40,943 nt of DNA, from the NCBI GenBank assembly GCA_003661365.1, contig QMVZ01000001.1, positions 1 to 40,943 on the forward strand, read 5' to 3'. This DNA is from Thermoproteota archaeon (GTDB taxonomy: Archaea; Korarchaeota; Korarchaeia; Korarchaeales; Korarchaeaceae). A program made the translations under genes and the position numbers. The notes under the pieces are model-generated. The model saw only the letters and a program-made list of their open reading frames with translations, did no database searches and was not told where the DNA came from. Positions 3,698-25,410 of the stretch are shown here, one piece after another (position 1 is the stretch's first letter; each line of letters begins with the position of its first letter).

Positions 3698-4237
3698 GTG
3701 GGAAAAGTGGGAAAGTCGACTCTTATTGCTGTTGTCATAATAATCATCCTTGTTGCCATAGGCGGGTTTTACAGCTACCAACAGATGACTAAACCTAAGA
3801 GTCCAACCGGGGAAGTTGTTCTGAAGGTTAAGGGGAAGATAACGAGAACCAATGTAGGTAATGAGTATCACTTTGATCTAGCCATGCTTGAGAAGATGAT
3901 AGACACAGAGTTTGATTGGGAGTGTCCGTGGTTTGGCAAATATCATTGGGAAGGAATATCTCTAGTTACACTTCTTAAGGAATTGGGTGTTCCTGATGAC
4001 GCTAAGTACATCAAGTTCACTGCTAAGGATGGAGTAACTGCTGAATATCCGATAAGCATGCTGAAAGAGCATCCCAACATAATTCTAGCAATAAAAATGG
4101 ACGGTGAATACATACCTGACGATAAAGTTGGTCCTCTGAGGGTTGTAATCCCTTATGATCAGTATCCAGAACTTGAAGAGGACTATCCTCCATTCCCCTT
4201 CACAGTTGGATGGATTATAGAGGCAGAGGTTGGCTAA
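3698..4237 (+). CDS. membrane-anchored protein with molybdopterin-oxidoreductase-like (YedY/sulfite-oxidase type) domain
   Basis: 179 aa. N-terminal TM helix (LIAVVIIIILVAIGGFY). WEGISLVTLLKELGV...FTAKDGVTAEY...ILAIKMDGEYIP...GPLRVVIP matches my memory of the Oxidored_molyb domain core. Confidence 0.6.
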   Translation: MGKVGKSTLIAVVIIIILVAIGGFYSYQQMTKPKSPTGEVVLKVKGKITRTNVGNEYHFDLAMLEKMIDTEFDWECPWFGKYHWEGISLVTLLKELGVPDDAKYIKFTAKDGVTAEYPISMLKEHPNIILAIKMDGEYIPDDKVGPLRVVIPYDQYPELEEDYPPFPFTVGWIIEAEVG

Positions 4238-6202: not shown

Positions 6203-7025
6203 GATGTCTCTTGTTCACTATTATCCCGGGGATTCTTTTTTTCACAAGTTAGATCCTAGAGTGAAGATGCTCTGGCTAGCCTGCATGTTCGTTTTATCCT
6301 TCATCTTCAACCATCCGTTACATCTAGGAGTTCTCTTCATTAGCGTCCTTTTCCTCTGGATATACATGAAGATCCCCTTCTCAGAGTTAAAGCTCTTCTT
6401 CAAGGCTCTGACAATAGTGGCAATAGTTACCTTCTTCTTTCAACTTCTCTTCTACCCAGGAGAACATGCCATCGTATCCTTCTCCATCCCTAGATGGATT
6501 CCTTACTTCGGAGGAGTCACCGCTATAACGATTGAGGGTCTTGTAAACGGAATAGCCATGGTCCTGAGGCTATTCATAATCGTACTTACAATGCCAGTGA
6601 TTACGATGTCCACCTCCCTAGAGCACCTCATCATAAGCCTGATAAGGATGGGAATGCCCTATGAAATAGCCTTTGCAGCTACAACCGCCTTAAACCTAGT
6701 TCCAGTACTTCAGTCAGATGCTCTGAAGATAATAGATGCCCAGAAGGCTAGGGCTTTTACAGCATTGGAGAGGGGGAGTTTCAAAGATAAAATAAAGGCT
6801 TACGTCCCCCTAATCGTCCCTCTTATGGTTGGATCTCTTAAGAAGGGTCAACAACTTGAGGTTGCCATGGAGTCAAGGGCATTTGGAGCATATGAGAGTA
6901 GGACCTACCTAACAGAGATAAGAATGCGATCCATAGATTATGTTTTTGCCGCATTCTTCGTTATTATTACGATTCTCTGCCTTGCCTTGAGAATCCTGAA
7001 AGGATTCGGGGCTTTCAGATTGTAA
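6195..7025 (+). CDS. ecfT: ECF transporter transmembrane T component (EcfT/CbiQ family)
   Basis: 276 aa polytopic membrane protein. Conserved C-terminal AQKARAF...EVAMESRAF motifs. Overlaps the ATPase gene by 8 nt. Confidence 0.88.
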   Translation: MDEMSLVHYYPGDSFFHKLDPRVKMLWLACMFVLSFIFNHPLHLGVLFISVLFLWIYMKIPFSELKLFFKALTIVAIVTFFFQLLFYPGEHAIVSFSIPRWIPYFGGVTAITIEGLVNGIAMVLRLFIIVLTMPVITMSTSLEHLIISLIRMGMPYEIAFAATTALNLVPVLQSDALKIIDAQKARAFTALERGSFKDKIKAYVPLIVPLMVGSLKKGQQLEVAMESRAFGAYESRTYLTEIRMRSIDYVFAAFFVIITILCLALRILKGFGAFRL

Positions 7026-7065
7026 GACTTATTAGTTTTCGCTTGGTTCGTCTATAGGTGACTGA

Positions 7066-7806
7066 ATGGTTAGAAGAAGAGGTAGAATAGCAGAAGTTCA
7101 TGTGGCTTACATAGCGATTTCGGCAGCTGTGACAACAGCTGCCGCTTACATACCAATGTTCCCAGTTATAGGAGCTGGCTCTATGATGAGCGCTGGTATG
7201 ATAGTCGTTCCGTTGGTCGGGATATTGTTAGGCCCGACAGCGGGAACTTTGGCGGTAGCGATAGGGGCTTTTCTGGGACAGATAGTGGCTCCTTATGGGG
7301 CTATATTTGGTTTAATAACGTTCTTGTGCCCTATGACTAATGCCTTTGTAGCCAGCCTGTTGGCATTTAGGAAGTGGAAAGAGGGAATTTGCGCATTAGG
7401 GCTTACGATATTGATGTGGTATGTGATTACCAGCATTAAATGGGCTGGAGATCCTTACGCCTCAGTAAGGTGGTATTTTCCATTCTTACATCTGGCCTCG
7501 TTTGCTTCCCTTCTGATCATGAGGGGTAAGATTGGTGAGTGGATTGAAGGCCTTGATCCAAAAAAAGTTCCTATAGGAATATTTCTGTCCGCGTTGGCAG
7601 GTTTGTTGGCTGAGCACATGGTTGGAAACGCTATATATGTAGGAATATATTCAGGCCCAGCCAGAGTATATGCGTTTGTCCTTTCCATATATTGGATTGA
7701 GAGGCTACTCGGAGCCATTGGAGCGACGCTTGTCGGAACCCCCTTGCTTATAGCTCTATACAAGGCTAGAGTAGAAATTGGGCCCTGGTCTCTTAGAGAA
7801 GGTTGA
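7066..7806 (+). CDS. putative ECF substrate-capture (S) component, integral membrane protein
   Basis: 246 aa with about 6 predicted TM helices. Sits immediately downstream of ecfA and ecfT. No specific S-family was recognised. Confidence 0.55.
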   Translation: MVRRRGRIAEVHVAYIAISAAVTTAAAYIPMFPVIGAGSMMSAGMIVVPLVGILLGPTAGTLAVAIGAFLGQIVAPYGAIFGLITFLCPMTNAFVASLLAFRKWKEGICALGLTILMWYVITSIKWAGDPYASVRWYFPFLHLASFASLLIMRGKIGEWIEGLDPKKVPIGIFLSALAGLLAEHMVGNAIYVGIYSGPARVYAFVLSIYWIERLLGAIGATLVGTPLLIALYKARVEIGPWSLREG

Positions 7807-7827: not shown

Positions 7828-8841
7828 TTGGATGTTATAAAGAGCATTTACGAGAAAGCTCTCGGTACTCTCGCTGCCTTAGCGATAGGAGATGCAATGG
7901 GCATGCCAGTTGAAATGCTTTCATTGGAGGAGATAAAGGAGATATATGGTGTAATAGAGGGGCTCGAGAAACCTCCCTCATGGCACATCCACAGTTCGTT
8001 TCCGCCTGGAAGGGTTACCGACGACACAGAGTTAACTCTGCTCCTAGCAAATGCTATCATTAGAACAGGTGGGGATTTAAAGGCTGAGGACTTCGCCGTT
8101 GAGCTGCGAAAGTGGGCAAAAAGTGGAGCATTTAACCTTGACTACATCGGACCAGCCACTAGAAAAGCTCTGAAGAAGTTAGTCATGGGGGTTTCTCCAA
8201 GAGAGTCTGGAGGGAGGGGGAGTACTTGTGGAGCGGCAATTAGGGTATCTCCCGTAGGCATAGTAAACGCGTGCAATTTTAAGGCTGCTGCTTTGATGGC
8301 TGTCGAATCATCTCTTCCTACTCATGGAGGTAAACCTGCGTTAGCAGGGGCCTCAGCAATAGCCTCGGCCATAGCTGAAGCTATGAGGGAAGGAAGTACA
8401 GTGGATTCTATCGTCAGAGCTGCTATTTTAGGATCTAAAATTGGAGAGAAGTTTGGAAGACCAGTTCCTTCAGCATCAGTATCAAAGAGAATTGAGCTTG
8501 CTGCATGTATCTCTAATAAAATAGATGATCCTGAAAAAGCTTCCTTAGAAATACGGGATATAATAGGCACAGGTATGGAAACCGCAGAGGCTGTACCAGC
8601 TGCCATTGGGATCTTCATCGCCAGCAGAGGAGATCCAATGAAGGCCATACACCTAGCGGTGAACTTAGGAGGAGACACTGATTCCGTGGCATCTATGGCT
8701 GGAGCGATCTCTGGTGCGTGGAAAGGGATTCAAGCAGTGGACAGGAAGATACTTAAAGAAGTTGAGGATGTAAATGGTCTTAATCTGGAGGATTTGGCAA
8801 TGAAACTTACAAATATAGCTTTGAGAAAGCTAAGAACATGA
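7828..8841 (+). CDS. ADP-ribosylglycohydrolase-family (DraG/ARH-fold) protein
   Basis: 337 aa. N-terminal GDAMGMPVE and C-terminal GGDTDSVASMAGAISGA metal-binding motifs of the ARH family. TTG start 21 nt after the S component. Confidence 0.85.
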   Translation: MDVIKSIYEKALGTLAALAIGDAMGMPVEMLSLEEIKEIYGVIEGLEKPPSWHIHSSFPPGRVTDDTELTLLLANAIIRTGGDLKAEDFAVELRKWAKSGAFNLDYIGPATRKALKKLVMGVSPRESGGRGSTCGAAIRVSPVGIVNACNFKAAALMAVESSLPTHGGKPALAGASAIASAIAEAMREGSTVDSIVRAAILGSKIGEKFGRPVPSASVSKRIELAACISNKIDDPEKASLEIRDIIGTGMETAEAVPAAIGIFIASRGDPMKAIHLAVNLGGDTDSVASMAGAISGAWKGIQAVDRKILKEVEDVNGLNLEDLAMKLTNIALRKLRT

Positions 8842-8860: not shown

Positions 8861-9586
8861 TTAACTTTCCCCATGTATGAGTTTAGCTAACGATTTAACG
8901 ACAGTTTCTGGGTTCTCCGTTTGCCAAATGTTCCTTCCAAATGCTATTCCTCGAGCTCCAGCATCAAGCGCATCCTTTACTATCGAAAAGAGTTTTTCAT
9001 CGCTTTCGATCTTCGGACCACCAAGTATGACAATCGGTATTGGGCAAGATTCCACCACTTTAGCGAAGGATCTCTTATCTCCTGTGTAGAATGTCTTCAC
9101 GAAGTCTGCTCCAGCTTCAGCTGCTATACGTGAGACTTTTGCAATTATCTCTGCGTTATACCTATCCTTTGTCTTTGGATACATCTCGGCCATGAGTGGA
9201 AGACCCCATTCCTCGCATATTATGGCCAACTCGCACAAAGAGTTGATGTTCTCAACTTCTTCAGGCACATGCGTGAATACCATCATCTTGATCGCATCCG
9301 CTCCAAGTCTAATGGCTTCCTTCACAACTTCCTCATAATCAACTAGTCCACTACTAATGCTCATTATAGTCGAGACTTTACCTGCCACTTCTGAGGACGC
9401 CATCCTTAGAATTCCTGGGTTTAGCATGAGGGCATCTGCTCCTCCTTTTATCACCCTTCCGATAGTTCTTATAGGATTCTCTATGCCAGGTAAAGGACCA
9501 AGCGCTATGCCGTGATCCATGGCTACTATTAGAGTTCTTCCATCCTCCCTAAAGATCCTCCCTAACCTTATCTCTTTTCCCGCCAA
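8861..9586 (-). CDS. DhnA-family class I aldolase (archaeal FBP aldolase / ADH synthase / LsrF-like)
   Basis: 241 aa. LIVAMDHG, GADALMLNPG and GADFVKTFYTG (candidate Schiff-base Lys) are typical of the DhnA/DeoC-like class I aldolase family. Confidence 0.8.
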   Translation of the reverse strand: MAGKEIRLGRIFREDGRTLIVAMDHGIALGPLPGIENPIRTIGRVIKGGADALMLNPGILRMASSEVAGKVSTIMSISSGLVDYEEVVKEAIRLGADAIKMMVFTHVPEEVENINSLCELAIICEEWGLPLMAEMYPKTKDRYNAEIIAKVSRIAAEAGADFVKTFYTGDKRSFAKVVESCPIPIVILGGPKIESDEKLFSIVKDALDAGARGIAFGRNIWQTENPETVVKSLAKLIHGES

Positions 9587-9701: not shown

Positions 9702-11102
9702 CTAAGAGAGAGCTTGTAGATCTGATTCTTTTATAGGTTCTCTAGGCTTCCTGTACTCATCGAGTTTGCTTAATTTCTCCTCAGCGATCTTCATTACCTT
9801 CCTTAGGAGTTCTTCCTCATCTATCGTGAGAAGCTTGCCATGCCTCACGACAATCCTTCCATCTACAATTACGGTGTCGACATCGCTTCCCTTTGCACAA
9901 TAGACTAGTGTTCGGAATATATCTGATAATGGCTGAATGTGAGGTTTCATAAGATTCACGAGAATGATATCTGCCTTTTTTCCAGGCTCTATTGATCCTA
10001 TTTCCTTATCCATACCAAGAACCTTGGCTCCTAACTTAGTTGCCATCATCATCACGTCAGTGGCTGAGATTATCGAGGGATCAAGGGAAGAGACTTTGTG
10101 GAGGAGTGCGGCCGTTCTCATCTCCTCAAACATGTCCAGGTTGTCGTTGCTAGCTGGTCCATCTGTTGCTAAGCCAACTGGGATATTAAGATTGAGCATT
10201 TTCTTGACAGGAGCGATTCCAGATGCTAATTTCATGTTGCTCTCTGGATTGTGGGATACTCCTGCATTTTTCTCCTTTAGGATCCTGATCTCCTTATCAT
10301 CAAGCCAAATACAATGGACAGCAACGAATGGATGGACATCTAATAGGCCTAAGCTATTTATATACTCAAGGGGGCCCATGCCAACCCTTTGCTTCATGTT
10401 ATCGACTTCGTATCTCGTCTCACCCACATGAATGTGAATGCCAACTCCATGCTTTTCTGCAATATCCACGATCTTTTTAAGCAAGCCCCTCGAGCAGCAG
10501 AAAGGCGTGGAAGGAGCTAGCATGAAAGATATCTTATCTTTCTCTCCATATTTTTTAATGAGGTTCTCACTTCTCTTAAGAGCCCACTCGGTAGGCAATA
10601 TTATGTCCCTTCTTATCCATTTATCAGCCAAAGTCAGGGCATATATTCCCCTTATTCCTGCATTTTTCAAGGCCTTTATCACAGCAGGACCCTGAATAAC
10701 TCCTTCCATAGCTACTATGGTCGTAGTTCCGGATTTTAGGGCTTCAACACAGGAGAGCAAGGTGCTGTAATAAACCAGCCTATCATCCCCAGCTATAGCG
10801 TCTTCTAAGGCCATCCTGCAAAAGGGGTACAGCGCCTCTTCACACCAATTGACTAGAGGAGCCGTGTCAACCATCCCTCTCAGAAAGCTCTGGTAAAGAT
10901 GAGAATGTGTGTTTATTAGGCCCGGAAGGACTGCCATCCCAGATGCATCTATCACTTTTTCTGGAGAGCATTCTTCCTCAACCTCCTTGCTCTTACCAAT
11001 TAGCCTTATCCTATTCCCTTCAATATAGACCGCACCATTGGAGATAACGCCATACTTACTCATGGTTACGAGCAGACCGTTTCTTATTAGAATACTGTTC
11101 AT
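9702..11102 (-). CDS. amidohydrolase-superfamily deaminase (MtaD/DadD/SsnA-like, TRZ/ATZ family)
   Basis: Metal ligands INTHSHLYQS (HxH), HIHVGET, VAVHCIW and ATDG. The ORF is open to 11183, but family members start near M..ILI.NG, so I chose the ATG at 11102 (MNSILIRNGLLV). Confidence 0.85.
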   Translation of the reverse strand: MNSILIRNGLLVTMSKYGVISNGAVYIEGNRIRLIGKSKEVEEECSPEKVIDASGMAVLPGLINTHSHLYQSFLRGMVDTAPLVNWCEEALYPFCRMALEDAIAGDDRLVYYSTLLSCVEALKSGTTTIVAMEGVIQGPAVIKALKNAGIRGIYALTLADKWIRRDIILPTEWALKRSENLIKKYGEKDKISFMLAPSTPFCCSRGLLKKIVDIAEKHGVGIHIHVGETRYEVDNMKQRVGMGPLEYINSLGLLDVHPFVAVHCIWLDDKEIRILKEKNAGVSHNPESNMKLASGIAPVKKMLNLNIPVGLATDGPASNDNLDMFEEMRTAALLHKVSSLDPSIISATDVMMMATKLGAKVLGMDKEIGSIEPGKKADIILVNLMKPHIQPLSDIFRTLVYCAKGSDVDTVIVDGRIVVRHGKLLTIDEEELLRKVMKIAEEKLSKLDEYRKPREPIKESDLQALS

Positions 11103-11189
11103 CTTCCACTCAAAATCGTGAAAAGACAAATATTTATCCCTTAGGAAAATTGCTGATGTAGTGTTTCTTATACGAATCATCATTATGAA

Positions 11190-12689
11190 TTGGCGAGAAT
11201 TATGTTGGAAGGTAGATTAGCTGAAAAGATCGGAGATGACGTTGTCAGAATCCAGAGGAACTGGATAAAAATAATTGAGGAGAAAAGGGGTAAGAAATTT
11301 AAGGTGAGCGATTGGCGGCTCATGCTTAAAACGAAAAATGACTTGGAGCCCCATGAGAGACAATTAAAGGAGGTTTTTGATTTATATATCGTCTCAGCTA
11401 ACGCTGGATATGACATCATAAGAGGACTGACGGATTACATCTATCCACAGGACGAGCCATGGTTGGAGCACTATCAGACGACTGCGGTGTTCGAAATTCT
11501 CTATGAGTATGACAGGGAATTCAAGAGAGCCTCTACCGCTTTGGTTAAGACAATAGATAGATCCGATGATTTGATTCAAAAGGAAGTTTTTGCCAGGTTC
11601 TACGGGCGCTATGGACAAACTTGGATCGTAGACTATGTTGCAACGCCAGGATCTTTCTCCAACCTCTATAAAAGGATTCTAGAAAGGGTAAACATGAGGC
11701 CAGACTATAAGTGGACATTCATCAACGCGGTTTCAGCTGCAAGAAATACTAGCTATAGTGTTATGTTTGGTTCTAAGTTTCTGGAAGCACTAAATTCAGG
11801 AAAGAGCATAAATGAGGCAATTAAAGCAGAAAAGGAGGTACTGAAGGAGATGTGGCTTAATCCCTTGGAGACGCAGGTTAGGATAATGAAGGAAGTTGGC
11901 CATAAGTCATTTGATTATGAAAGGTGCATTAAGATGTTCAAAAAGAAGATCTATGAGGCAACCGTTAAAGCAGCAGAGGCCGGCGTGCACTACTCTAATT
12001 TGAGTTTAATTCCTCTTTGGGCAGCTGGGGACTTCCATCACGTTTCTCAAACAACGTACAATTTATGCAAGGGAGACATTGAATTTGCAATACTTCAGAG
12101 CCTGACGGATGCGCTGGAACGAACTATAGATAATGCTAAAAAGGATGGAAAGCTAAGGGACCCGTATAAGATCCCAACATGGGAGGTTACAGCTTCAGCA
12201 TCCGCGTACATCATGAGGCTAGATGGCTTTACCTCAAGCATGGTGGCGGATCTGCTTATGAGGAGGTTCTACAACCTCATCCTAAAGGATCCAAAGATAT
12301 TCAGATATGAGTGTATGAACGAAGAATTTGTCAATTTCCTTAGTCAAGGCGAGTACTTCATCGAAAAACCTCCCAGAGGGCTCGGCCGAAAGGTTTGGAA
12401 CGTTAACATAGATCTATCTCCCATAGAAAAAAACGAGATCTTAAGCAATCCTCAACATTACTCTTGGCCAGAGTGCCCAATTACAAGCCGTTTTGCGAGT
12501 TTGCTTCGCTTTGCCGATGAGCCCTTTCATTTGATTAGCGATCCAATGGTGTGCCTTTATGCGACTGAGCTCATAGCTTTAAATCCTGGCAAACCCCATT
12601 TGCCATATCTTTTCTGCAAGAAATGTGTTTCTGCCAAGTATTTACCGTTCAGATGTAAGTACTGCCTTGCTGAGAAGGAACCTCAGTAA
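11190..12689 (+). CDS. large hypothetical protein with C-terminal CxxC...CxxC zinc-ribbon-like motif
   Basis: 499-aa uninterrupted ORF with protein-like composition. C-terminus is LFCKKCVSAKYLPFRCKYCLAEKE. No family recognised with certainty; it may be an archaeal DUF of about 500 aa. Divergent from the deaminase gene. Confidence 0.6.
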   Translation: MARIMLEGRLAEKIGDDVVRIQRNWIKIIEEKRGKKFKVSDWRLMLKTKNDLEPHERQLKEVFDLYIVSANAGYDIIRGLTDYIYPQDEPWLEHYQTTAVFEILYEYDREFKRASTALVKTIDRSDDLIQKEVFARFYGRYGQTWIVDYVATPGSFSNLYKRILERVNMRPDYKWTFINAVSAARNTSYSVMFGSKFLEALNSGKSINEAIKAEKEVLKEMWLNPLETQVRIMKEVGHKSFDYERCIKMFKKKIYEATVKAAEAGVHYSNLSLIPLWAAGDFHHVSQTTYNLCKGDIEFAILQSLTDALERTIDNAKKDGKLRDPYKIPTWEVTASASAYIMRLDGFTSSMVADLLMRRFYNLILKDPKIFRYECMNEEFVNFLSQGEYFIEKPPRGLGRKVWNVNIDLSPIEKNEILSNPQHYSWPECPITSRFASLLRFADEPFHLISDPMVCLYATELIALNPGKPHLPYLFCKKCVSAKYLPFRCKYCLAEKEPQ

Positions 12690-12842
12690 TACAGATCCTC
12701 TCTAGGTAAATATCATATCTTAAATATCTCACAGCAGTCTTCGTTTAATCACTTCTACAAAGTTTTTGTTCAACCACCGAGCCGAACTTTTGTTTTAATC
12801 ATAATATTTTGTTTTTAGCATCACAAATTGCAACTTTAATAA

Positions 12843-13151
12843 CTAAGAGGAGTAGCCCAAGAGGGTCTTAGCCAAGGAGGAAGGATCCCACCAAAGCCTC
12901 CAACCAATAAAGAAAACGGAAAATATCAAGATTACAGTTATGATAGCAATGAAGTTGGCTATCGTGAGACGAGGAGGTTCCTCTAAATATGTTCTCTTCT
13001 TGTATGCTTCAAAAGCCCGTGATTCTAACGCTATCTGGAACCCATCTGCCCAGTAGTAAAGGGGAATGAAACGTAATGCGGTTCCTAAGGCCACTATTAT
13101 AGCCATCCAAGCAATAGGGGCACCATAAGGAGTACGAGCATGTATACTGCA
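12843..13151 (-). pseudogene. remnant of an EcfT/CbiQ C-terminus (truncated ECF T component)
   Basis: The open frame ARTPYGAPIAWMAIIVALGTALRFIPLYYWADGFQIALESRAFEAYKKRTYLEE... aligns with the C-terminal about 100 aa of the intact EcfT at 6195-7025 (..PLMVGSLKKGQQLEVAMESRAFGAYESRTYLTE..). No N-terminal two-thirds is present. Confidence 0.6.
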
Positions 13152-13207
13152 CTAGATTGTGTGGTCATCTTTCTTATCTCCTCTCCTTGAGAAAAACCTG
13201 ATGACTA

Positions 13208-13582
13208 ATGCAATTACTCCAACAATTAGTGGAAGTAGCTACGGAAAGAGTTATAAATGAGACAGAATTTGTAGGGGTTTTCTGCTATCCTCTGGGTGGA
13301 CTCACAGGAGCTAAGGTTGGAGGGATCAACTACAAGAATGTAAGAGCGACGGTAAATCATAAGTACTGTCCATCCCTCAAAAGCATAGTTCCGGATTCTA
13401 AAGTTCCTAAAGAAGCTCGTTCAGCATTTGAGTTTCCTTTGGTTGGACTTGACTCTAGAAATTTAAAGGTTGCAATGTTCGTCGCCTTAGAAGCGTTTTC
13501 GACAGTTCCAGGTGTACTGGAGGTTACAGCTCCTAAATCCGAGGGTTGTTGGGGAACGAAAAAGTATATTTGCATGATATAG
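13208..13582 (+). CDS. hypothetical protein (124 aa)
   Basis: ORF only. No recognisable motifs. Convergent with the Mch-like gene. Confidence 0.3.
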   Translation: MQLLQQLVEVATERVINETEFVGVFCYPLGGLTGAKVGGINYKNVRATVNHKYCPSLKSIVPDSKVPKEARSAFEFPLVGLDSRNLKVAMFVALEAFSTVPGVLEVTAPKSEGCWGTKKYICMI

Positions 13583-13645
13583 TCTCACTATTACATAAAA
13601 GATAAGATTACCGATGCGATAGGCTACAGAAATGTGCTGTAAATT

Positions 13646-14692
13646 TTACCACGGATTTGAAAGCAGTTTCTCTAAAATATTATCATGAACCCTACCAGCT
13701 CTGTACATCCTCCCAGTTCTGGTGTCATATAAGCATAGCTCGGCCATAATGAAACCATATCCTTCTTTTGCAAGCCTTATCAAGTCATATTTTGGATCTA
13801 TGTACTTCTTCTCAACAACTGCTAGTTGATAGAACGATTTACCGAAGGAATTTGGGTTATTCTCAATAACTGTTTCTTCTGCAATCCTCTGAAGATCCTC
13901 TCCTTCTTTTGAGTAAATCCAAGCATGCAATACACCACCATGCCTTACCATATCATCGGCCCAGGGGCAAGGTTCTCTAAATACTCTAGGCGATATGGGG
14001 GCTATCGGCGTTATCGTCATCATAGCTTCTATTCTATCGTAGGAGATGCCGTAATACTCAGTCAATCTCCAAAACCCATCTTCCATCGTCCGAGCAGAGA
14101 CCTGTACGGAGCCTACTATCGAGTTTGTGGGTGTGACTATGAGATAGAGATTCTCTGGACTCACTCCACAGGCACTTGCTAATTTTTCTGTAACAGCTTC
14201 ATCTGGGAGATCTTTGCCACGAGGCTGGACTAATAGCACGGCAACGTTCCCCTCATCTTTATAGTCCAGCTTGGCATATACTTTCTCTGGCTTCTGCCTT
14301 AAGGCCTTTCCAGGTCCCGATACCCATGCCGTATACTCATTCACTTCCACATGAGGCGGATGTATTACCTCGGGCCAAACGTAGTAAGATATTCCGATTA
14401 TAGCAGGAAGATCAGTGTAGGCAACGATAGCTGGCAGATATATGCTACCGTACTTAGCCATGATTACTTTTGCTTCACCAAATCCGCATAATGCAGCCCT
14501 TGTCACATACTCTGCTGCCTTAAATCCTCCTTTCACATTAACTCCAGTATCTATAATTGTTACGTGATTCTTGAGCTCAAGAACATCAATATCTAACGAA
14601 TCCTTCTTTTGTATCATCTCTCTGACCACCTGAAGGGATTGCTCATTAACGCTTACTCCCTTTAGACGCTTAATTGAGACCTTATCAGACAT
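13646..14692 (-). CDS. methenyltetrahydromethanopterin cyclohydrolase (Mch) family homolog
   Basis: Collinear matches to my memory of Mch sequences: VSVNE, IIDTGVNVKGG, SGPGKALRQKPE, VTPTNSIVGSVQVSART, ITPIAPI, FGKSFYQ, DTRTGRMYRAGRV. I chose the ATG at 14692, preceded by GGGGG; the ORF is open to a TTG at 14704. Confidence 0.8.
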   Translation of the reverse strand: MSDKVSIKRLKGVSVNEQSLQVVREMIQKKDSLDIDVLELKNHVTIIDTGVNVKGGFKAAEYVTRAALCGFGEAKVIMAKYGSIYLPAIVAYTDLPAIIGISYYVWPEVIHPPHVEVNEYTAWVSGPGKALRQKPEKVYAKLDYKDEGNVAVLLVQPRGKDLPDEAVTEKLASACGVSPENLYLIVTPTNSIVGSVQVSARTMEDGFWRLTEYYGISYDRIEAMMTITPIAPISPRVFREPCPWADDMVRHGGVLHAWIYSKEGEDLQRIAEETVIENNPNSFGKSFYQLAVVEKKYIDPKYDLIRLAKEGYGFIMAELCLYDTRTGRMYRAGRVHDNILEKLLSNPW

Positions 14693-14772
14693 ACTTTCCC
14701 CCAAACAGCTACAAGAGGAATAACTTTAAACTTTTTGAGAGATAGTCCACGTAACCTAAATTTGAGTCGCAC

Positions 14773-15756
14773 CTACTCGCCAACTACTTCTCTGAATACC
14801 CTAAGGAAGTTTAACCCAAGTATCTTCTTTATCTCGCCCTCAGAATACCCTCTTTCAATCAGACCTTTCGTTAGATTTGGGAGATCTGTAATAGTTCTAA
14901 GTTCTTTGGGCCAGGTATATATTCTGCCATCTATCTTAATCAGCACCCTTCTAGTTACTGGAAATTCTGCCCATCCCTCGGCAAAGTCTAGCCCTATTCC
15001 GACATGGTTTACTCCCACTAAGTTTACTACATAATCAATACAATCAAGGACTCTTTCAATGGTGCAATTTCTATCTGGATCCCTACATAGCATCCTCGGA
15101 AATGCTGTTACACCAATTACACCTCCTTTCTCAGCTAAAGCCATTATTTCCTCATCTGTCTTATTCTGATACACATCTAAGATGTTGCGGGGATTGCAAT
15201 GAGACGCTATCACTGGATCTCTTGAAAGTTCTATGGCCTCTAAAACGCTTTTTCTTCCGACATGAGCCAAATCTATCAATATATTGAGTCTATTTAATTC
15301 CTTAACAAGTTCAACTCCCCATTCGCTCAGCCCAGAATCTGTCCTTTCTTTACATCCATCAGCAGCTATATTCCTGAAATGATAACTTAACTGAATTATT
15401 CTTACACCTAGATTCTCATATATTCGTAAGAATCTTAAATCTCCTTCTAATGGAGCTATATTCTGAAAGCCAGCAATTATGCCAACTTTTCCTTCTTTCT
15501 TAGCCTCTAATATTTCTCTTGCTGATGTTACAAACGTTGCTATATCCTTGTTCTCATCTATGAGATCCTGAAGATCTAATAGTCTCATTACAGTCTCGCG
15601 GAAACTATGGTTCATAGCAACGGTATAATTTATAGCAGTTACACCTGCGCTCGATAATTTTTCAAAATATTCTCTGCATAGTAAGGAAGAATTTAGCATA
15701 TCAACTATTATAGCCTCATTATGAAGTTCTAAAACTCCCTTTGCTTTGGAAGGCAC
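14773..15756 (-). CDS. M19 (renal/membrane dipeptidase) family protein, atypical N-terminal metal site
   Basis: 327 aa. LIDLAHVG, PVIASHCNP, HVGIGLDF and LNFLRVF match the M19 core. The N-terminal IDGHxD motif appears as IIVDMLNSS. GTG start. Confidence 0.8.
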   Translation of the reverse strand: MPSKAKGVLELHNEAIIVDMLNSSLLCREYFEKLSSAGVTAINYTVAMNHSFRETVMRLLDLQDLIDENKDIATFVTSAREILEAKKEGKVGIIAGFQNIAPLEGDLRFLRIYENLGVRIIQLSYHFRNIAADGCKERTDSGLSEWGVELVKELNRLNILIDLAHVGRKSVLEAIELSRDPVIASHCNPRNILDVYQNKTDEEIMALAEKGGVIGVTAFPRMLCRDPDRNCTIERVLDCIDYVVNLVGVNHVGIGLDFAEGWAEFPVTRRVLIKIDGRIYTWPKELRTITDLPNLTKGLIERGYSEGEIKKILGLNFLRVFREVVGE

Positions 15757-16187
15757 AAACAGGTCATGACATCTTTAACATTTAAATTTGAGTAGGCGCT
15801 TGTGGCAGCGATTTTAGCAAGCGCTGTTAGTGGAGAACGCAGAGCAGAGATAAAGGAACCAGGAGGAATAAAGAAACCCTCTAAAGCGCAGCAGAATTGT
15901 TGCAGCATAACTTTTGAGAGAGCGCTAAAGAATAAGCTGCTTTGCAACCATAAAAACGAGGTAATGAAGATAGAGCCATTTGGGTTCTGGGAAGGTAATT
16001 TATATAGCGTTGTTACAGGGACTGCTGTAAATTAAGAGAGTATGAGGACAATCTATTCTCTAGTAAGGAATATCATAGGTGTATAAGGTATAACTATCGG
16101 TTCTGTAACAAGAGCTTCTTCCTTTCATATGCCAGAATTTTCCTTAGCCTTAAATTAAATTAATTAAGCATTTTCATCTGTTTAGAG

Positions 16188-18203
16188 GTGATCTCTTTGG
16201 GTCAATTTCACGGAGCATCACCTGATAAGGTAACAAAAATGTATAGGATTATGTTACTGATAAGGTGTGTCGAGGAGAAATTAAAAGAGTTGAACATCGA
16301 GGGGCTAATTCCGGGCTTTCTCCATTTAAGCATCGGACAAGAAGCCGTAGCTGCAGGAGTAATGGCTGCTTTGAAAGATGGTGATTACATACTTAGTACG
16401 CACAGGGGACATGGACATTGTTTGGCTAAAGGCATGAGTGAATACATGTTATTTGCCGAGATACTAGGGAAAGTCGAGGGTTGCTGCATGGGAAAGGGTG
16501 GTTCAATGCACCTATGCGATGTAAAACACGGAATAATGGGGACAAATGGTGTTGTGGGAGCGAATATTCCTTTAGCAGCCGGCATAGCCTTCGCCCTAAA
16601 ATACAAGGGAGAAGAGGGAGTCGTTGCATGTTTCTTTGGAGATGGAGCAAGCAATACAGGAGCTTTTCATGAAGGACTTAACCTAGCTGCAGTATGGAAA
16701 CTTCCTGTCATATACGTATGCGAGAACAACCTTTACGCCATCTCGACACGAATAACAAGGGTAACCTTAATTCAGGACATAGCAGAGAGAGCTTCTTCTT
16801 ATGGAATGCCTGGGGTTGTTGTGGACGGAATGGATCCTCTGGCTGTTTATGAGGCAACCTTAAAGGCAGTAAAACGAGCCAGAAATGGAGAGGGCCCAAC
16901 TCTCATAGAATGCAAGACCTATAGATTCTGCGGTTCCTACGCAGCTGAACCTCCTGCTGTTGAGAGACTGTACAGGAGCGAGGAAGAAGTAAAAGAGCAC
17001 ATGAAGAGAGATCCCATCAAAAAAGTGGAGAAGTTGCTCATTGAATCAGGATACTTAACTGAAGTGGAGATTGCATCCCTTAAGGAGGATATTAAGGCGA
17101 GAGTAAAAGATTCTGTAGAGAAGGCGAAGGCTGCACCCAAACCCTCTGTCGAAATCGCTTTTAGCCATCTATATCCTGAGAGGGAGGAGATTCCAGTCGA
17201 TCTAGAGGAGCTTTCTGGCGAACTTGTAGAACTGCCCATGAATGAGACGATTAGAATTACTCTTAGGGAGGAAATGCGGAAAGATAAGAGAATAGTGCTC
17301 ATGGGTGAAGACATTGGGGTTCTTGGCGGAGATTTCAGGGTAACTAAGGGATTGCTCGAAGAATTTGGAGAGAGGAGAGTTCTGGATACTCCGATTTCAG
17401 AGACTGGTTTCGTAGGTTTAGCTATAGGAGCCGCTATGGCTGGGCTAAAACCGGTTGTGGAGATAATGTTCGTCGATTTTGCAGGTGCTTGCATGGATCA
17501 AATAATGAATCAGGCTGCAAAACTCAGCTATATGTATGCTGGGCAGATAAGAATACCTCTTGTTATCAGAGCAGCATGTGGAGGAGGGATTAGGGCTGCT
17601 GCTCAACATTCACAAGTCTTAAGTTCGATATTCAGCCACATACCTGGGCTAAAAGTTGTGATGCCAAGTAATCCATGCGATGCAAGAGGATTATTGAAGA
17701 GTGCGCTCAAAGAGAACTGTCCAGTTATTTTCCTAGAACACAAACTTCTCTATGGAGTCTTGGGTCCTGTTCCGATGGGCGAGTACTATATCCCTATTGG
17801 TAAGGCAAAGGTTGTTAGAAAGGGTTCAGATGCCACAGTAGTGGCATCTGGACTCATGGTTAATAGAGCCTTAGAAGCTGCTAAGAATTTAGATGAGAGA
17901 GGGATTAGCATCGAAGTAATAGATCTGAGAACCATCTCTCCTATAGATAGAGAGACTATTGTCAATTCTGTTAAGCACACAGGTCGATTGGTAATCGTAG
18001 AGGAGGACTGGGCACCTTGCAGCATATCAAGTGAGGTGGCTGCCATAGTAGCTGAGGGACCTTTTGACAGCCTATTATCTCCTGTGAAGAGGGTAACGAC
18101 GCCTTTCTATCCGATGCCTTATAACCCAGAGTTAGAGGACTCGATGATTCCAAGCGTCAAAAAGATAGTGTCTGCCGTGGAGGAGGTGATGGACATCCTA
18201 TGA
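16188..18203 (+). CDS. fused 2-oxoacid dehydrogenase E1 component, alpha+beta subunits (TPP-dependent)
   Basis: 671 aa. The alpha part carries HLSIGQEA, GDGASNTG and YVCENNLYAIST. A linker follows, then the beta part (MNETIRITLREEM..., VLDTPISETGF, transketolase C-terminal-like domain). Confidence 0.88.
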   Translation: MISLGQFHGASPDKVTKMYRIMLLIRCVEEKLKELNIEGLIPGFLHLSIGQEAVAAGVMAALKDGDYILSTHRGHGHCLAKGMSEYMLFAEILGKVEGCCMGKGGSMHLCDVKHGIMGTNGVVGANIPLAAGIAFALKYKGEEGVVACFFGDGASNTGAFHEGLNLAAVWKLPVIYVCENNLYAISTRITRVTLIQDIAERASSYGMPGVVVDGMDPLAVYEATLKAVKRARNGEGPTLIECKTYRFCGSYAAEPPAVERLYRSEEEVKEHMKRDPIKKVEKLLIESGYLTEVEIASLKEDIKARVKDSVEKAKAAPKPSVEIAFSHLYPEREEIPVDLEELSGELVELPMNETIRITLREEMRKDKRIVLMGEDIGVLGGDFRVTKGLLEEFGERRVLDTPISETGFVGLAIGAAMAGLKPVVEIMFVDFAGACMDQIMNQAAKLSYMYAGQIRIPLVIRAACGGGIRAAAQHSQVLSSIFSHIPGLKVVMPSNPCDARGLLKSALKENCPVIFLEHKLLYGVLGPVPMGEYYIPIGKAKVVRKGSDATVVASGLMVNRALEAAKNLDERGISIEVIDLRTISPIDRETIVNSVKHTGRLVIVEEDWAPCSISSEVAAIVAEGPFDSLLSPVKRVTTPFYPMPYNPELEDSMIPSVKKIVSAVEEVMDIL

Positions 18204-18967
18204 GCGCTAGTGGTCTCCGCTTAAGGGGTAAGGTTGCTATTATAACAGGAGCTGGGTCAGGTATAGGTAGGGCAACAGCTTTGCTCTTTGCTGAGGAGGG
18301 GGCTAAAGTGGTGATATGTGATATTGCAGAGAGCGGGGCTGAAGTATGTAAGGAAATAACCGAGAAAGGGGGAGAAGCTATATTCATAAGAGCTGATGTT
18401 TCTAAGGTGGAAGACGTGGCTTATCTCATTAAAAAGACCATTGAAGGGTACGGGAGATTGGATGTATTAATTAACAATGCAGGCATACCGTCCCGCGGAA
18501 CTGTGCTCGATATAGCAGTAGCTGAATGGGATCGTGTGCTAGATGTTAATCTAAAAGGAGCTTTCCTCTGCAGCAAATATGCTATACCTGAGATGATAAA
18601 GGGCGGTGGGGGGGTCATAGTGAACGTAGCCTCTGTCCTAGGGCTCGTAGGAGGGAAAGGAGAAGTGGCCTACTGTACATCGAAAGGAGGCCTGATAGCT
18701 CTTACCAAGGCATTAGCCTTGGATTTCGCTGAGTATAAGATTCGAGTAAACTGCATCTGTCCAGGATCCGTTGAAACTCCAATGAGGCAAAGAATAATGG
18801 CTCAAAAAACTCCTGAAGAGCGCAGAGCTGTAGAATTGAAGATACCAATTAAAAGAGTAGCCAAGCCAGAGGAGATCGCTCGTGCCATCCTCTTCCTAGC
18901 CTCTGAAGAATCAAGCTATATGACTGGGTCTGTCCTTGTAGTTGACGGCGGATGGACAGCAAGATAG
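18200..18967 (+). CDS. short-chain dehydrogenase/reductase (FabG/glucose-1-dehydrogenase-like)
   Basis: 255 aa. TGAGSGIGRA, NNAG and catalytic YCTSKGG (YxxxK). ATGA overlap with the E1 gene. Confidence 0.9.
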   Translation: MSASGLRLRGKVAIITGAGSGIGRATALLFAEEGAKVVICDIAESGAEVCKEITEKGGEAIFIRADVSKVEDVAYLIKKTIEGYGRLDVLINNAGIPSRGTVLDIAVAEWDRVLDVNLKGAFLCSKYAIPEMIKGGGGVIVNVASVLGLVGGKGEVAYCTSKGGLIALTKALALDFAEYKIRVNCICPGSVETPMRQRIMAQKTPEERRAVELKIPIKRVAKPEEIARAILFLASEESSYMTGSVLVVDGGWTAR

Positions 18968-19115: not shown

Positions 19116-19953
19116 CTAGGAATGAACGTATTTTCTAGCGGCGTCTTCTGCCTTCTTAATGATTTCAAGATTCCTTGTAAGACCCTCTATGGGATCTTGG
19201 GCTCCGCTTTCAAATATCAAGATCCCATCATATTTGTGTTCTACTAGAAGTCGAAGAATGCCAACCAAGTCCAAGTTCCCTTCTCCCAAAGGAAGGTGGA
19301 ATAGTTCCGAATTAGGGCCCGTATTGTCGCTTAGATGCACATGTATCACCCTATCAATTACTTGATAGAGGAAATTGACAGGATCTGAACAAGTGTTAGC
19401 GTGTGCAGCATCAAATGTTATCCCCACGTTCTGCAAGTTTATTGCATCTACCAGTTCTAACATTACCTCTGGAGTGGTAGCAAACTGATCTGGTCTAGAG
19501 TCCGTGTTCTCCAGTCCAACTCTTATCCCAAGTTCCTTGGCTTCCTGACAAACTTCCTCGAGTGATTCTATTGCTTTCTCAATGTAAATACGATCTGGAA
19601 TTCTAAGGCTTGCCCTTCTCCCTGGGTGTATGACAACAAGCTCGGCTTCCAACTCAGCAGCCAAATAAACGCTTTTCATTAGCAGAAGTTTAGACTCACG
19701 TCTTATCCACGGATTGAGGCCAGCTATGTTCATATCATGGCAGGGAGCGTGAATTGTGCAATTTATCCCGTTTTTCTTCAGCAAACTCAAGATTTCTGAG
19801 GTCTCTCTTTCCATCCAGGTACGGGAACATAGAGGGATGATCCATCCACAGTTCAAATACCTCATAACCCATCTTTGAGAGCCCATAGATTGCGTCTTCT
19901 ACGCTAAGATTCCACAGAGCACCTTGCCCGAATCCCAGCCTCCAGCCTCTCAA
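19116..19953 (-). pseudogene. sugar phosphate isomerase/epimerase (xylose-isomerase-like TIM barrel), interrupted by an apparent +1 frameshift
   Basis: The N-terminal homology (LGFGQGALWNLSVEDAIYGLSKMGYEVFELWMDHP) lies in ORF 19735-19953. The rest (ETSEILSLLKKNGINCTIHAP...VVIHPG...GLEN...HVHLSDN) lies in ORF 19116-19886, in another frame. Confidence 0.7.
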
Positions 19954-19954: not shown

Positions 19955-20974
19955 TTATTTCCCCCATGGCTCTACAATCACTTTCAGGCCGTTTCTTGAT
20001 TTTGCAGTCTCTATAGCCTCCTTTATCTGGTCTAGAGGGAATCTGTGGGATATTATCTTATTTAGTTTCATCTTTCCTGCAGAAAGAAGTCTAACTGCTT
20101 GAGCAAAATGGTTCGCTGTTCTTCCCTCGATTCCCACAAGTGCTATCTCTTTGTGATGTATTATGTTTGGATCGAAGGACAGTTTGATTGGGGGATAGGC
20201 AGCAGCAAAGAAAACTATTGTTCCTCTTTTTGCTGAAGCATTTAAGGCCTGATGAAAGACAGACTCTCCCAAAAAGGTCATTATTACGGCGTTTGCCCCC
20301 TTTCCATCGGTAAGGCTTTTCACCTTTTCTACAATATCTACTTTGGTCGGGTCTATGGCTTCCTCGGCCCCCAACTCTAAGGCTTTCTCCCTCCTAAATT
20401 CAAGAGGCTCGCTTACTATTGCTCGAACTCCCATGTTGTTAAGTAGCTGAACGAACATCAGACCTATTGGTCCTGAACCTACAACGAGAACAGAATCTCC
20501 AAGCTGGATATCATATATTTTTTCTATAGCGTTTATGCAACAAGCCAAGGGCTCGCATAGGGCAGCTTCATCGAGAGCAACCGAATCAGGAAGCTTGTGC
20601 ATGTACTTCTCCGGCATCTTAAAGTATTCAGCGAAACCATTGGGAAGAGGACCTTTTCTCCTCTCACAAAGATTGTCAGCCCCTCTCCTGCAGTAGTAGC
20701 AGGAATTGCACCTCCAAATAGCGTCAACAGCTACTTTATCACCAGTTTTTAGGGATTGAACATCCTCGCCCACCTCGACCACGATGCCAGAAATTTCGTG
20801 CCCTATTGGGCAAGGCGTATATGGTAGGAATAACCCTTCATATATCCTTATGTCAAATGGGCAAACTCCACAAGCTTGTATCCTTATAATAACATCATCT
20901 GGTTTCCCTATTGAAGGATCGGTGGTCTCTATCGTCCTTACATCTTTAGGACCGAAAACAAAGGAAGCTTTCAT
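19955..20974 (-). CDS. Zn-dependent medium-chain dehydrogenase (threonine/sorbitol dehydrogenase-like)
   Basis: 339 aa. GHEISGIVVEVGEDV, CNSCYYCRRGADNLC, VVGSGPIGL. Confidence 0.88.
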   Translation of the reverse strand: MKASFVFGPKDVRTIETTDPSIGKPDDVIIRIQACGVCPFDIRIYEGLFLPYTPCPIGHEISGIVVEVGEDVQSLKTGDKVAVDAIWRCNSCYYCRRGADNLCERRKGPLPNGFAEYFKMPEKYMHKLPDSVALDEAALCEPLACCINAIEKIYDIQLGDSVLVVGSGPIGLMFVQLLNNMGVRAIVSEPLEFRREKALELGAEEAIDPTKVDIVEKVKSLTDGKGANAVIMTFLGESVFHQALNASAKRGTIVFFAAAYPPIKLSFDPNIIHHKEIALVGIEGRTANHFAQAVRLLSAGKMKLNKIISHRFPLDQIKEAIETAKSRNGLKVIVEPWGK

Positions 20975-22826: not shown

Positions 22827-22858
22827 TTATGTGATTATGCTAACAAATATTTAAGGAT
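22810..22858. repeat. left arm of a perfect 49-nt inverted repeat (partner 24360-24408)
   Basis: cccatatccatcaccatttatgtgattatgctaacaaatatttaaggat is the exact reverse complement of 24360-24408. It covers the TATA-like box, the spacer and the first 17 nt of the CDS. Confidence 0.95.
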
Positions 22859-23261
22859 TCCTGTTCTCGCTTAGAATCTCCACAGGCTGTTTAGAAGACA
22901 GCATCTGTTCCATTGCAACTATAACCTTATCCGATAACACATGTTCCAATTTGCATGCTTCCATCTTAGATTCTTTTCTTGATAGACCTAGGATTTCCTC
23001 TAAAAATCTCTGTATCAACAAATTCTTTCGCTGTATCTGTAAAGCTTGTCTGAACCCTTTCGCTTTCAATCTAGCTCCTATTCCAGGTTTATAATCCACT
23101 AGATCAAGTTCATGAAGTCTTCTAAACATTTCTGTGACTGATGGCGGCTTTATGTTTAATCTAGTAGCCACTTCAGTGGTTCTGATGTATCTGCGGTCCC
23201 CGCCTTTTTCAAAGAGCGTCTTTAGATAATCCTCTATTGCTCTCTTTGAGCACTTACTCAT
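22851..23261 (-). CDS. DtxR/MDR1-family metal-dependent transcriptional repressor (HTH + dimerisation domain, no SH3 domain)
   Basis: AIEDYLKTLFE...TTEVATRLNIKPPSVTEMFRRLHELDLV (wHTH) and ...RFLEEILGL...MEACKLEHVLSD (DtxR primary metal-site C/E/H motif). The ORF is open to 23390. I chose the ATG at 23261 (MSKCSKRAIEDYL), which removes the overlap with the divergent gene. Confidence 0.85.
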   Translation of the reverse strand: MSKCSKRAIEDYLKTLFEKGGDRRYIRTTEVATRLNIKPPSVTEMFRRLHELDLVDYKPGIGARLKAKGFRQALQIQRKNLLIQRFLEEILGLSRKESKMEACKLEHVLSDKVIVAMEQMLSSKQPVEILSENRNP

Positions 23262-23323
23262 TGCTATCAATAAATTGGGATAATGCACATTATTATATTT
23301 TTTGGATTTTAGTTTAAAGAATA

Positions 23324-24322: not shown

Positions 24323-24359
24323 AACCTTGCACTACATGGTACACAGAGGATCGAGAACC

Positions 24360-24715: not shown

Positions 24716-24716
24716 C

Positions 24717-25406: not shown

Positions 25407-25410
25407 TTTT

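Follow-up and report, generated by a model that had tools for sequence, protein, structure and literature searches.

Mch, Ftr, and Mer are viewed as enzymes dedicated to the tetrahydromethanopterin (H4MPT) one-carbon (C1) pathway. During the fermentation of purines by clostridia and the breakdown of histidine, an N-heterocycle is opened by amidohydrolases; the N-CH=N carbon is then passed to a pterin carrier and cyclized to the methenyl form. These routes use folate, with a formiminotransferase, a cyclodeaminase, and a cyclohydrolase capturing the formimino or formyl carbon. Here, we describe a gene neighborhood around MchL, a diverged paralog of methenyl-H4MPT cyclohydrolase (Mch), which is encoded in a 40,943-nt stretch of archaeal DNA (positions 1–40,943 of contig QMVZ01000001.1, assembly GCA_003661365.1, Thermoproteota archaeon). 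This whole stretch is called the window below. Its nearest relatives are metagenome-assembled genomes labeled Bathyarchaeota, Bathyarchaeia, or 'Nitrososphaerota archaeon'. The neighborhood is conserved in Bathyarchaeia and apparently previously undescribed. The window copy is a partly eroded version of this Bathyarchaeia catabolic neighborhood.

The ribose of nucleosides and nucleotides is processed by the archaeal pentose bisphosphate pathway, comprising ribose 1-phosphate (R1P) kinase, ribose-1,5-bisphosphate (R15P) isomerase, and type III RuBisCO. The likeness to our clusters lies in their PfkB kinases and in the R15P isomerase, RuBisCO, and phosphoribosyl pyrophosphate (PRPP) synthetase genes found near MchL in some lineages; the window, in contrast, contains neither R15P isomerase nor RuBisCO. 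In the known pathway, the base is not degraded, and no Mch, Ftr, M19, or DUF2193 component takes part. The sole characterized DUF2193 member is MvoDUF2193 of Methanococcus voltae, whose function was left unassigned; it binds one [4Fe-4S] cluster per subunit via a C-terminal CX2CX6DX2(H/C)X2C motif (PMC12375889). A MIP/porin channel gene neighbors 91% of the methanogen DUF2193 homologs (PMC12375889).

An earlier note, made by reading the window alone, had singled out positions 11190–15756 as an uncharacterized cluster. Its observation was confirmed, with all the open reading frames (ORFs) present where it placed them, and its interpretation was partly supported. The genes concerned, together with the adjoining amidohydrolase, are as follows.

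9702–11183, minus strand: cog0402 amidohydrolase, MtaD/DadD/SsnA-like (Amidohydro_1, E 1.8e-70)
11190–12689, plus strand: DUF2193 protein, 499 aa (PF09959, E 4.5e-134)
12843–13106, minus strand: 3' remnant of ecfT, an 87-aa ORF (45% identity to residues 222–263 of the window EcfT, E 8e-8)
13208–13602, plus strand: ftr pseudogene, containing a 124-aa ORF at 13208–13582 (PF02741, E 3.8e-18)
13646–14692, minus strand: MchL, diverged Mch paralog (PF02289, E 1.8e-60; listed ORF 13646–14704)
14773–15756, minus strand: M19-family amidohydrolase, 2I5G subtype (PF01244, E 5.7e-84)

MchL compared with canonical Mch

The clear Mch homology with collinear motifs claimed in the earlier note held: MchL follows the PF02289 profile over positions 1–309 of 311 and matches M. 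kandleri Mch (1QLM) with an E value of 4.8e-52. Since all homologs have 348 aa, its start probably lies at 14692, four codons downstream of 14704. E204 and R201 of MchL occupy the alignment positions of the catalytic residues E186 and R183 in A. fulgidus Mch. The MchL segment SARTMEDG corresponds to SGRIVETA in the wild-type structure 4GVQ and to SGRIVQTA in 4GVR, E186 being the site of the E186Q mutant in structures 4GVR and 4GVS. E204 is invariant in the MchL clade, and R201 is 92% conserved. Canonical Mch has 25 alignment columns with at least 85% conservation across 143 sequences; MchL keeps 21 of them, the changes being Gln to Tyr104, Arg to Lys129, and Gly at 60 and 226. Tyr104 occurs in 97% of the clade and adjoins a clade-specific insertion. 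The G2 subclade (38–40% identity) has further changes, R201 to Ser and Q197 to His.

On TIGR03120, the NCBIfam Mch equivalog, MchL reached 201.4 bits, below the cut-off of 228.8, and its clade ranged from 168 to 202 bits. The canonical P0020 scored 297 bits, and the second Mch proteins of the clusters (Mch2) scored 264–298 bits, above the cut-off. An exhaustive search of 1.84 billion representative proteins yielded only three representatives closer than ordinary Mch (54, 41, and 42% identity as compared with at most 34%). The MchL clade is monophyletic in a neighbor-joining tree, as one branch near the canonical Bathyarchaeia Mch, so that the non-canonical clade considered in the earlier note was indeed found. 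It is apparently small and confined to Bathyarchaeia and related uncultured archaea. The dN/dS values of 0.07–0.11 indicate strong purifying selection on MchL.

MchL resembles canonical Mch (PF02289/TIGR03120; 1QLM, 4FIO, 4GVQ) in its full-length collinearity, in the counterparts of E186 and Arg183, and in most conserved residues. It differs in its sub-cut-off score, the Gln to Tyr exchange with the clade insertion, and its small separate clade. Furthermore, it shares an operon with a canonical-scoring Mch and is found in a transporter/amidohydrolase/ribose cluster, not with fwd, mtd, and mtr. Judged from its sequence, MchL represents a new subfamily that has diverged within a known enzyme family. 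Its position beside a canonical-scoring Mch in the operon, the altered conserved residue of the pocket, and the separate clade argue that it is not a redundant Mch. Three other proteins of 600–700 aa (P0045, P0086, and P0142) carry Mch domains at their C-terminus; these are possible fusions, perhaps with Ftr.

Genes around MchL in related loci

We compared 70 related loci, drawn from gene look-ups and from two scans (one of genome contigs and one of metagenomes), and their ORFs were labeled by BLASTP against Pfam-annotated references. The genome contigs were scanned with a single protein, which yielded only four close relatives; the metagenome scan used an alignment. The MchL loci represent 17 lineages at the 90% level, with 38–96% identity to the window protein, and the neighbors were counted over the 12 lineages having at least 9 kb of sequence. 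The counts are given below.

cog0402 amidohydrolase: 8 of 12 lineages
Short-chain dehydrogenase (SDR): 8
Zn-dependent alcohol/polyol dehydrogenase (Zn-ADH): 7
M19: 6
Sugar-type ATP-binding cassette (ABC) binding protein/permeases: 6
PfkB: 6
Ftr-like: 5
FGGY kinase: 5
DeoC aldolase: 5
E1: 5
ADP-ribosylglycohydrolase-family (ARH) protein: 3
DUF2193: 3 (plus the window's own strain)

The amidohydrolase is the most constant neighbor of MchL. M19, cog0402, DUF2193, and transporter genes recur beside MchL in many Bathyarchaeia contigs, in line with the linkage considered in the earlier note. The three genes grouped there (DUF2193, MchL, and M19), however, do not form an obligate unit: in sister strains with 94–96% identity, DUF2193 is missing and M19 is lost or pseudogenized, while MchL is kept.

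The fullest form of the cluster was found in L001, L002, and L020–L027. Its order is E1a-E1b-E2-LplA-M19 > < permease-permease-SBP-amidohydrolase / MchL-[Ftr-Mch2]-MalK > < SDR / DUF2193 > < DeoC-ZnADH-PfkB-FGGY, where SBP is the substrate-binding protein. In L002, the run MchL-Ftr-Mch2-MalK, which ends with the transporter ATPase, has gaps of 35, 10, and 55 nt, and L022 shows a 7-nt overlap between MchL and Ftr. These tight spacings tie the C1 paralogs to the transporter. In L029, Ftr, DUF2193, PfkB, ARH, and FGGY are packed in this order into a tight operon (3-nt gap, 34-nt overlap) that runs divergently from the amidohydrolase. The transporter type varies: energy-coupling factor (ECF) transporters are present in the window, L010, L031, and L034, and CUT1 ABC or major facilitator superfamily (MFS) transporters elsewhere.

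The Ftr proteins of the clusters are all below their cut-off (156–252 bits as compared with 292.6). Mer-like genes are present in two G2 lineages, L034 and L036, and the L036 copy (280.7 bits) exceeds the NF002619 cut-off of 276. The L034 locus also contains a DHO_dh-like gene. PRPP synthetase is encoded near MchL in L029, L033, and L038, and an IF-2B-family gene was found in L029. L038 carries a bona fide R15P isomerase (389 bits as compared with 314) and a RuBisCO large subunit. At 16100–18331 of the same locus, about 6 kb from its G2-type MchL, there is a xanthine-dehydrogenase-family molybdenum subunit. GFO oxidoreductases also occur among the cluster flanks.

The earlier note had stated that no other gene of the C1/H4MPT pathway occurs in the window and that the Mch homolog appears to be used outside methanogenesis/Wood-Ljungdahl. 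The first statement needs correction, since a remnant of such a gene is present, the ftr pseudogene at 13208–13602. The second, taken as a use outside H4MPT chemistry, is not supported: the fuller clusters carry Ftr-like proteins, canonical-scoring Mch, and, in the two G2 lineages, Mer-like proteins. Together with the ftr pseudogene, these make it probable that the pathway includes H4MPT C1 chemistry.

In L050 (462–7277), L055, and L065, a member of another canonical-like Mch clade (the P0041 group) is followed by FGGY-PfkB-ZnADH-DeoC, facing DUF2193; therefore, the DUF2193/pentulose module is not tied to a single clade of Mch-family genes. The canonical Bathyarchaeia Mch (P0020) was seen in an unrelated housekeeping context in the one context viewed. 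At L072 884–2809, the P0020 Mch is divergent from a creatininase-family gene. This family includes archaeal formamidopyrimidine deformylases.

The other genes of the window to which we refer are listed here.

129–662, plus strand: PfkB-family sugar kinase (PF00294, E 3e-29; the ORF covers only the C-terminal half of the profile)
778–1812, plus strand: Zn-ADH (ADH_N and ADH_zinc_N; syntenic in L002, L011, and L020–22)
1809–3281, plus strand: FGGY pentulose kinase, xylulokinase-like (FGGY_N/C; TIGR01312 311 bits, below the cut-off of 380)
3698–4237, plus strand: molybdopterin-binding domain protein, 179 aa, sulfite-oxidase-type
4466–7806, plus strand: intact ECF transporter (two ABC_tran, CbiQ, ECF-ribofla_trS 34.6 bits), with fused EcfA-A' at 4466–6202, EcfT at 6195–7025, and the S component at 7066–7806
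7828–8841, plus strand: ARH protein, putative ribosyl-bond hydrolase (PF03747, E 2e-67)
8861–9586, minus strand: class I DeoC/LacD-family aldolase (PF01791, E 2.6e-44; NF005556 240.5 as compared with a cut-off of 241)
16188–18203, plus strand: fused E1 alpha-beta component of a thiamine pyrophosphate-dependent 2-oxoacid/acetoin dehydrogenase (E1_dh, Transket_pyr, and Transketolase_C)
18200–18967, plus strand: SDR (adh_short_C2, E 4e-73)
19116–19886, minus strand: xylose-isomerase-like TIM-barrel protein (AP_endonuc_2)
19955–20974, minus strand: second Zn-ADH (ADH_N/ADH_zinc_N)
34334–37748: OTCase-fold carbamoyltransferase (minus strand), 425-aa pyridoxal phosphate (PALP) enzyme (minus strand), and carbamate-kinase-like AA_kinase (plus strand)

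Proteins encoded beside MchL

Profile searches assigned the 499-aa protein to DUF2193 (PF09959) across its full length (448 bits, residues 10–494) and the 124-aa ORF to the C-terminal lobe of Ftr (PF02741). For the former, the earlier note had described a Zn-ribbon with a CKKC-N10-CKYC knuckle. The two Cys pairs are real, but the spacer has nine residues (C476-X2-C479-X9-C489-X2-C492), and the Zn-ribbon reading was replaced by membership in PF09959 and the [4Fe-4S] motif of this family (PMC12375889). The full motif reads C476-KK-C479-VSAKYL-P486-FR-C489-KY-C492 (CX2CX9CX2C); its four Cys and the Pro are invariant among 19 Bathyarchaeia sequences. The C-terminal cysteines are most simply read as a putative [4Fe-4S] site. 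MvoDUF2193 and the window protein are thus alike in PF09959 membership and in the C-terminal cysteine motif; the Asp of the former motif is replaced by the invariant Pro in Bathyarchaeia, while all four Cys are kept.

The genomic context is also different. Whereas the methanogen genes lie beside MIP/porin channel genes, the window DUF2193 lies inside the MchL cluster and that of L029 is packed between Ftr-like and PfkB genes. Neither the window nor the related loci examined yielded a MIP gene. The AlphaFold2 model of the protein is all-alpha (pLDDT 84.8, pTM 0.88), and Foldseek detected no structural neighbor for it in the PDB (best E 0.2, TM at most 0.16). The cysteine region, with its two CXXC pairs, was modeled at a pLDDT of 42–58 only. 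The many invariant polar residues, e.g., the GDFHHVSQTTYNLCKGD stretch, suggest that DUF2193 may be an enzyme rather than a mere carrier. The dN/dS value is 0.145 relative to the L070 copy (94% identical).

Canonical M19 dipeptidases carry DGHND, with the N-terminal HxD metal ligands of the binuclear site. The M19-like protein matches PF01244 (282 bits) at profile positions 35–319 only, and its closest solved relative over the full length is PDB 2I5G, a P. aeruginosa 'amidohydrolase' of 325 aa (E 2.4e-64). Inspection of the N-terminus, where the first 34 profile positions are unmatched, revealed no HxD motif in either protein: the M19-like sequence reads IIVDMLNSS and 2I5G reads VIDGLIIAK. The gene shares its strand with the Mch gene and starts off 69–81 nt upstream of it, which agrees with the spacing of about 80 nt noted earlier, and its dN/dS value is 0.08 relative to L005. 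The uncharacterized 2I5G differs from the window protein in being bacterial. It is probably PA5396, a presumed match based on the identical length of 325 aa. PA5396 is a 325-aa 'putative dipeptidase' and the first gene of the dimethylglycine dgc operon (PMC13492115). If the two are identical, the context of 2I5G is C1-releasing amine catabolism, not ribose or heterocycle genes.

The DUF2193 gene is divergent from the MtaD/SsnA-like amidohydrolase gene, as had been noted before (9702–11183 on the minus strand as compared with 11190–12689 on the plus strand). The start of the latter is probably near 11102, since homologs align from residue 28 on. The amidohydrolase scored 429 on PRK06038 (cut-off 609) and 400 on PRK07228, the 5'-deoxyadenosine deaminase model (cut-off 522). 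Being below these equivalog cut-offs, it is assigned by its scores as a member of the MtaD/DadD superfamily group only. Its nearest PDB structure is the MTA/SAH deaminase 4F0R (E 4e-66), and its closest kin overall are MTA/SAH and 5'-deoxyadenosine deaminases.

Erosion of the window copy

The ftr remnant spans positions 188–298 of the 307 in a profile built from the cluster Ftr proteins, with its last ~16 codons in another frame (+2). The N-terminal lobe (PF01913) of Ftr (formylmethanofuran:H4MPT formyltransferase) was absent in a six-frame search with this profile. A fragment in L070 is 76% identical and frameshifted, with a dN 5.6 times that of DUF2193 and a dN/dS value of 0.47. A standalone 124-aa FTR_C family was considered and dropped; its only instances are one copy with 98% identity and a broken one of 83 aa, which marks the ORF as a pseudogene. 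By these features, the 124-aa ORF is a truncated, frameshifted ftr pseudogene under relaxed constraint.

A decayed gene for an ECF T component had been predicted in the same region, and the prediction was borne out by the 87-aa ORF at 12843–13106, which was aligned by both tblastn and BLASTP to the C-terminal end of the window EcfT. Only ~42 residues correspond, and the ORF has no Pfam match. The plus-strand frames of 12690–13207 are all full of stops.

Positions 11297–13643 of the window (2.35 kb) are exactly absent from the sister strains L008, L009, and L015 (94–96% MchL identity). The deletion removes DUF2193 from approximately codon 36 together with the ecfT and ftr remnants. In L009 and L015, M19 is reduced to a 177-nt remnant, and in L008 it is a pseudogene carrying an in-frame stop and two frameshifts. 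L069 matches the window in architecture. The cluster of the window lineage is decaying, and the pathway is being trimmed. The retained genes comprise MchL, the amidohydrolase, the ribose genes, the ECF transporter, and E1/SDR. Because ftr is dead and DUF2193 and M19 are lost in sister strains, the maintained core consists of MchL, the amidohydrolase, the ribose genes, and E1/SDR. The dS of MchL between the window and L009 is 0.27, two to four times that of the flanking genes (0.06–0.15), which hints at recombination at the MchL locus.

A possible catabolic route and its alternatives

With the family assignments, the conserved catalytic residues, the clade structure, the conserved linkage and operons, and the local gene decay in hand, we infer a substrate, a reaction for MchL, a formyl transfer, and roles for the M19 and DUF2193 proteins. 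The reading that we favor, tentatively and at somewhat less than an even chance, is that the cluster serves the uptake and catabolism of a ribose-bearing N-heterocycle, nucleoside-like and most plausibly purine-type, with the formyl-level carbon passed to H4MPT. The N-heterocycle uptake and ring-opening pathway put forward in the earlier note fits the genomic context in this form. A ribosylated N-heterocycle is suggested by the constant nucleoside/purine-deaminase-type amidohydrolase, the ribosyl-processing enzymes, and the transporter. Among the common heterocycles, those that carry N-CH=N carbons oxidized to the level of formate are the purine-type rings.

The substrate would be imported by the ECF transporter in the window and by CUT1-type ABC or MFS transporters elsewhere, and then deaminated by the MtaD/DadD-like amidohydrolase. 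The ribosyl part would be handled by the ARH-like protein, the PfkB and FGGY kinases, the class I aldolase, and the dehydrogenases, to which some lineages add PRPP synthetase, R15P isomerase, and RuBisCO. MchL, having kept the catalytic Glu and Arg in an altered pocket, would handle the formyl-level carbon: it may hydrolyze a cyclic N-CH=N(+) amidine in the substrate, yielding an N-formyl amine, or it may process a non-canonical C1 adduct of H4MPT, e.g., formimino. In the complete clusters, the Ftr-like enzyme would move the formyl group onto H4MPT, and the canonical-type Mch, with a Mer-like protein in some lineages, would feed the C1 pool. Further hydrolytic or redox ring steps may be carried out by the 2I5G-type M19 protein and DUF2193, and the E1(/E2/LplA) component with the SDR could oxidize a keto or acyloin product.

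Several points weigh against this proposal. The ABC binding proteins look like binders of oligosaccharides and unlike the known nucleoside binders, and the core cluster contains neither a nucleoside phosphorylase nor a classical purine-catabolic enzyme. Since its catalytic residues are retained, MchL could be a plain methenyl-H4MPT cyclohydrolase. DUF2193 and M19 are dispensable in close relatives, and DUF2193 is found in a minority of lineages; the cluster is therefore modular and not a fixed pathway.

The most serious alternative, although we judge it unlikely, places an isofunctional methenyl-H4MPT cyclohydrolase in a sugar/polyol island, where Mch, Ftr, and Mer only handle formaldehyde or formate set free as sugars are broken down, or are extra copies of the upper branch of the Wood-Ljungdahl pathway, and no N-heterocycle is involved. 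The catalytic Glu and Arg and most family-conserved residues of MchL would agree with this, as would the sugar-type binding proteins and the flanks dominated by FGGY, PfkB, Zn-ADH, DeoC, xylose-isomerase-like proteins, and GFO oxidoreductases; the sister strains also keep MchL without Ftr, DUF2193, or M19, as expected for a housekeeping enzyme. It is harder to reconcile with canonical-scoring and non-canonical Mch proteins standing side by side in one operon across lineages, which argues against redundancy. MchL is below the equivalog cut-off, with a conserved Gln substituted and insertions, its most constant partner is a nucleoside/purine-deaminase-type amidohydrolase, and the canonical Bathyarchaeia Mch is located in an unrelated housekeeping context.

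Returning to the ribosylated N-heterocycle, a more specific version appears distinctly unlikely to hold in all its parts: a hydrolytic, non-oxidative purine-riboside route of Bathyarchaeia, in which MchL, having acquired a new function, opens the N-CH=N carbon, the Ftr-like enzyme moves a formyl or formimino group directly onto H4MPT, and DUF2193 is an Fe-S enzyme of new fold. If true, the ring carbon would be conserved for the Wood-Ljungdahl pathway. The favored reading as a whole resembles the clostridial and histidine routes in its logic, but would use Ftr-like and Mch-like proteins instead of FTCD-type enzymes and H4MPT instead of tetrahydrofolate. The catabolic cluster, with its transporter, contains a diverged set of paralogs kept under selection, which would be a first case of Mch/Ftr/Mer-type enzymes recruited to break down an organic substrate. 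This would also point to a way in which the abundant uncultured Bathyarchaeia of sediments obtain carbon and energy, from compounds derived from nucleic acids or from similar nitrogenous ones. The neighborhood supplies a concrete metabolic context for DUF2193 and for the uncharacterized 2I5G branch of M19.

Salvage or remodeling of an imported pterin- or flavin-type cofactor, e.g., methanopterin or a precursor from dead methanogens, seems improbable. The Mch/Ftr/Mer-like proteins would then bind the H4MPT scaffold, while ARH and the kinases would act on the ribosyl or ribityl part. ECF transporters, a type common in vitamin uptake, adjoin MchL in the window, L010, L031, and L034, the clusters contain paralogs of three H4MPT-binding enzyme families, and the cog0402 group to which the amidohydrolase belongs includes 8-oxoguanine deaminases as well as pterin deaminases. 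Methanopterin contains an alpha-ribofuranosyl-ribitol link, which an ARH-type enzyme could cleave; this also speaks for salvage. Other lineages, however, have high-capacity sugar-type ABC systems, and the E1/E2/LplA complex, the aldolases, and the RuBisCO of one lineage look like bulk catabolism. No pterin reductase or H4MPT-biosynthesis gene was seen in the clusters.

Highly improbable, in our view, is the absence of any shared function, i.e., a shuffled accessory island of unrelated operons that travel together. The gene order and content are highly variable between lineages, gains and losses of DUF2193, M19, and Ftr are independent of one another, and the local copy contains pseudogene remnants and the 2.35-kb indel. 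Against this, the same families surround MchL over 38–96% identity with differing orders and transporters, and tightly packed or overlapping operons also occur; this pattern is hard to square with hitch-hiking.

The earlier note had suggested that ureido or carbamoyl products of ring opening could be harvested by the YgeW-like carbamoyltransferase and carbamate kinase. This idea, in which the PLP enzyme encoded with them at 34.3–37.7 kb would also take part, is scarcely credible and was rejected: OTCase-fold, PALP, and AA_kinase genes are present at 34334–37748, but they lie ~19 kb away, past iron-uptake and Fe-S genes, and the link is unsupported because none of the three has a homolog within 10 kb of MchL in any of the 70 related loci.

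Other genes of the window

The OTCase-fold/PALP/AA_kinase trio resembles the YgeW/YgeX/carbamate-kinase trio of bacterial anaerobic purine degradation. The PfkB ORF at 129–662 matches only the C-terminal half of its profile, so the true start should lie upstream, near the left edge of the window. Its orthologue in L006 has R1P kinase and ribokinase as the top-scoring models. The molybdopterin-binding protein at 3698–4237 stands between the FGGY kinase and the ECF transporter, and its conservation is restricted to the closest strains. The nearest structure to the ARH protein is MJ1187 (1T5J), and the ARH gene adjoins PfkB in L006, L029, and L032.

The fused E1 alpha-beta component is a single 671-aa protein, with no E2 nearby in the window. 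In related loci, E1a and E1b are separate and accompanied by E2 and lipoate-protein ligase, with lipoyl synthase also present in L038; the E1a, E1b, E2, LplA arrangement was found in L001 and L020–27. The xylose-isomerase-like protein and the second Zn-ADH are syntenic in L005, L009, and L015. The window contains no Rfam family and no tRNA, hence no riboswitch or other RNA pointer to a ligand.

An iron/Fe-S-themed block occupies 22851–31416 and 38361–40174. It contains a DtxR-type iron repressor, a radical SAM protein, two small Nitro_FeMo-Co (NifX/NifB-C-like) proteins, two MinD/ParA-type ATPases with inserted ferredoxin domains, DUF134, and a split FeoB. NifS-like and NifU-like genes follow later in the block.

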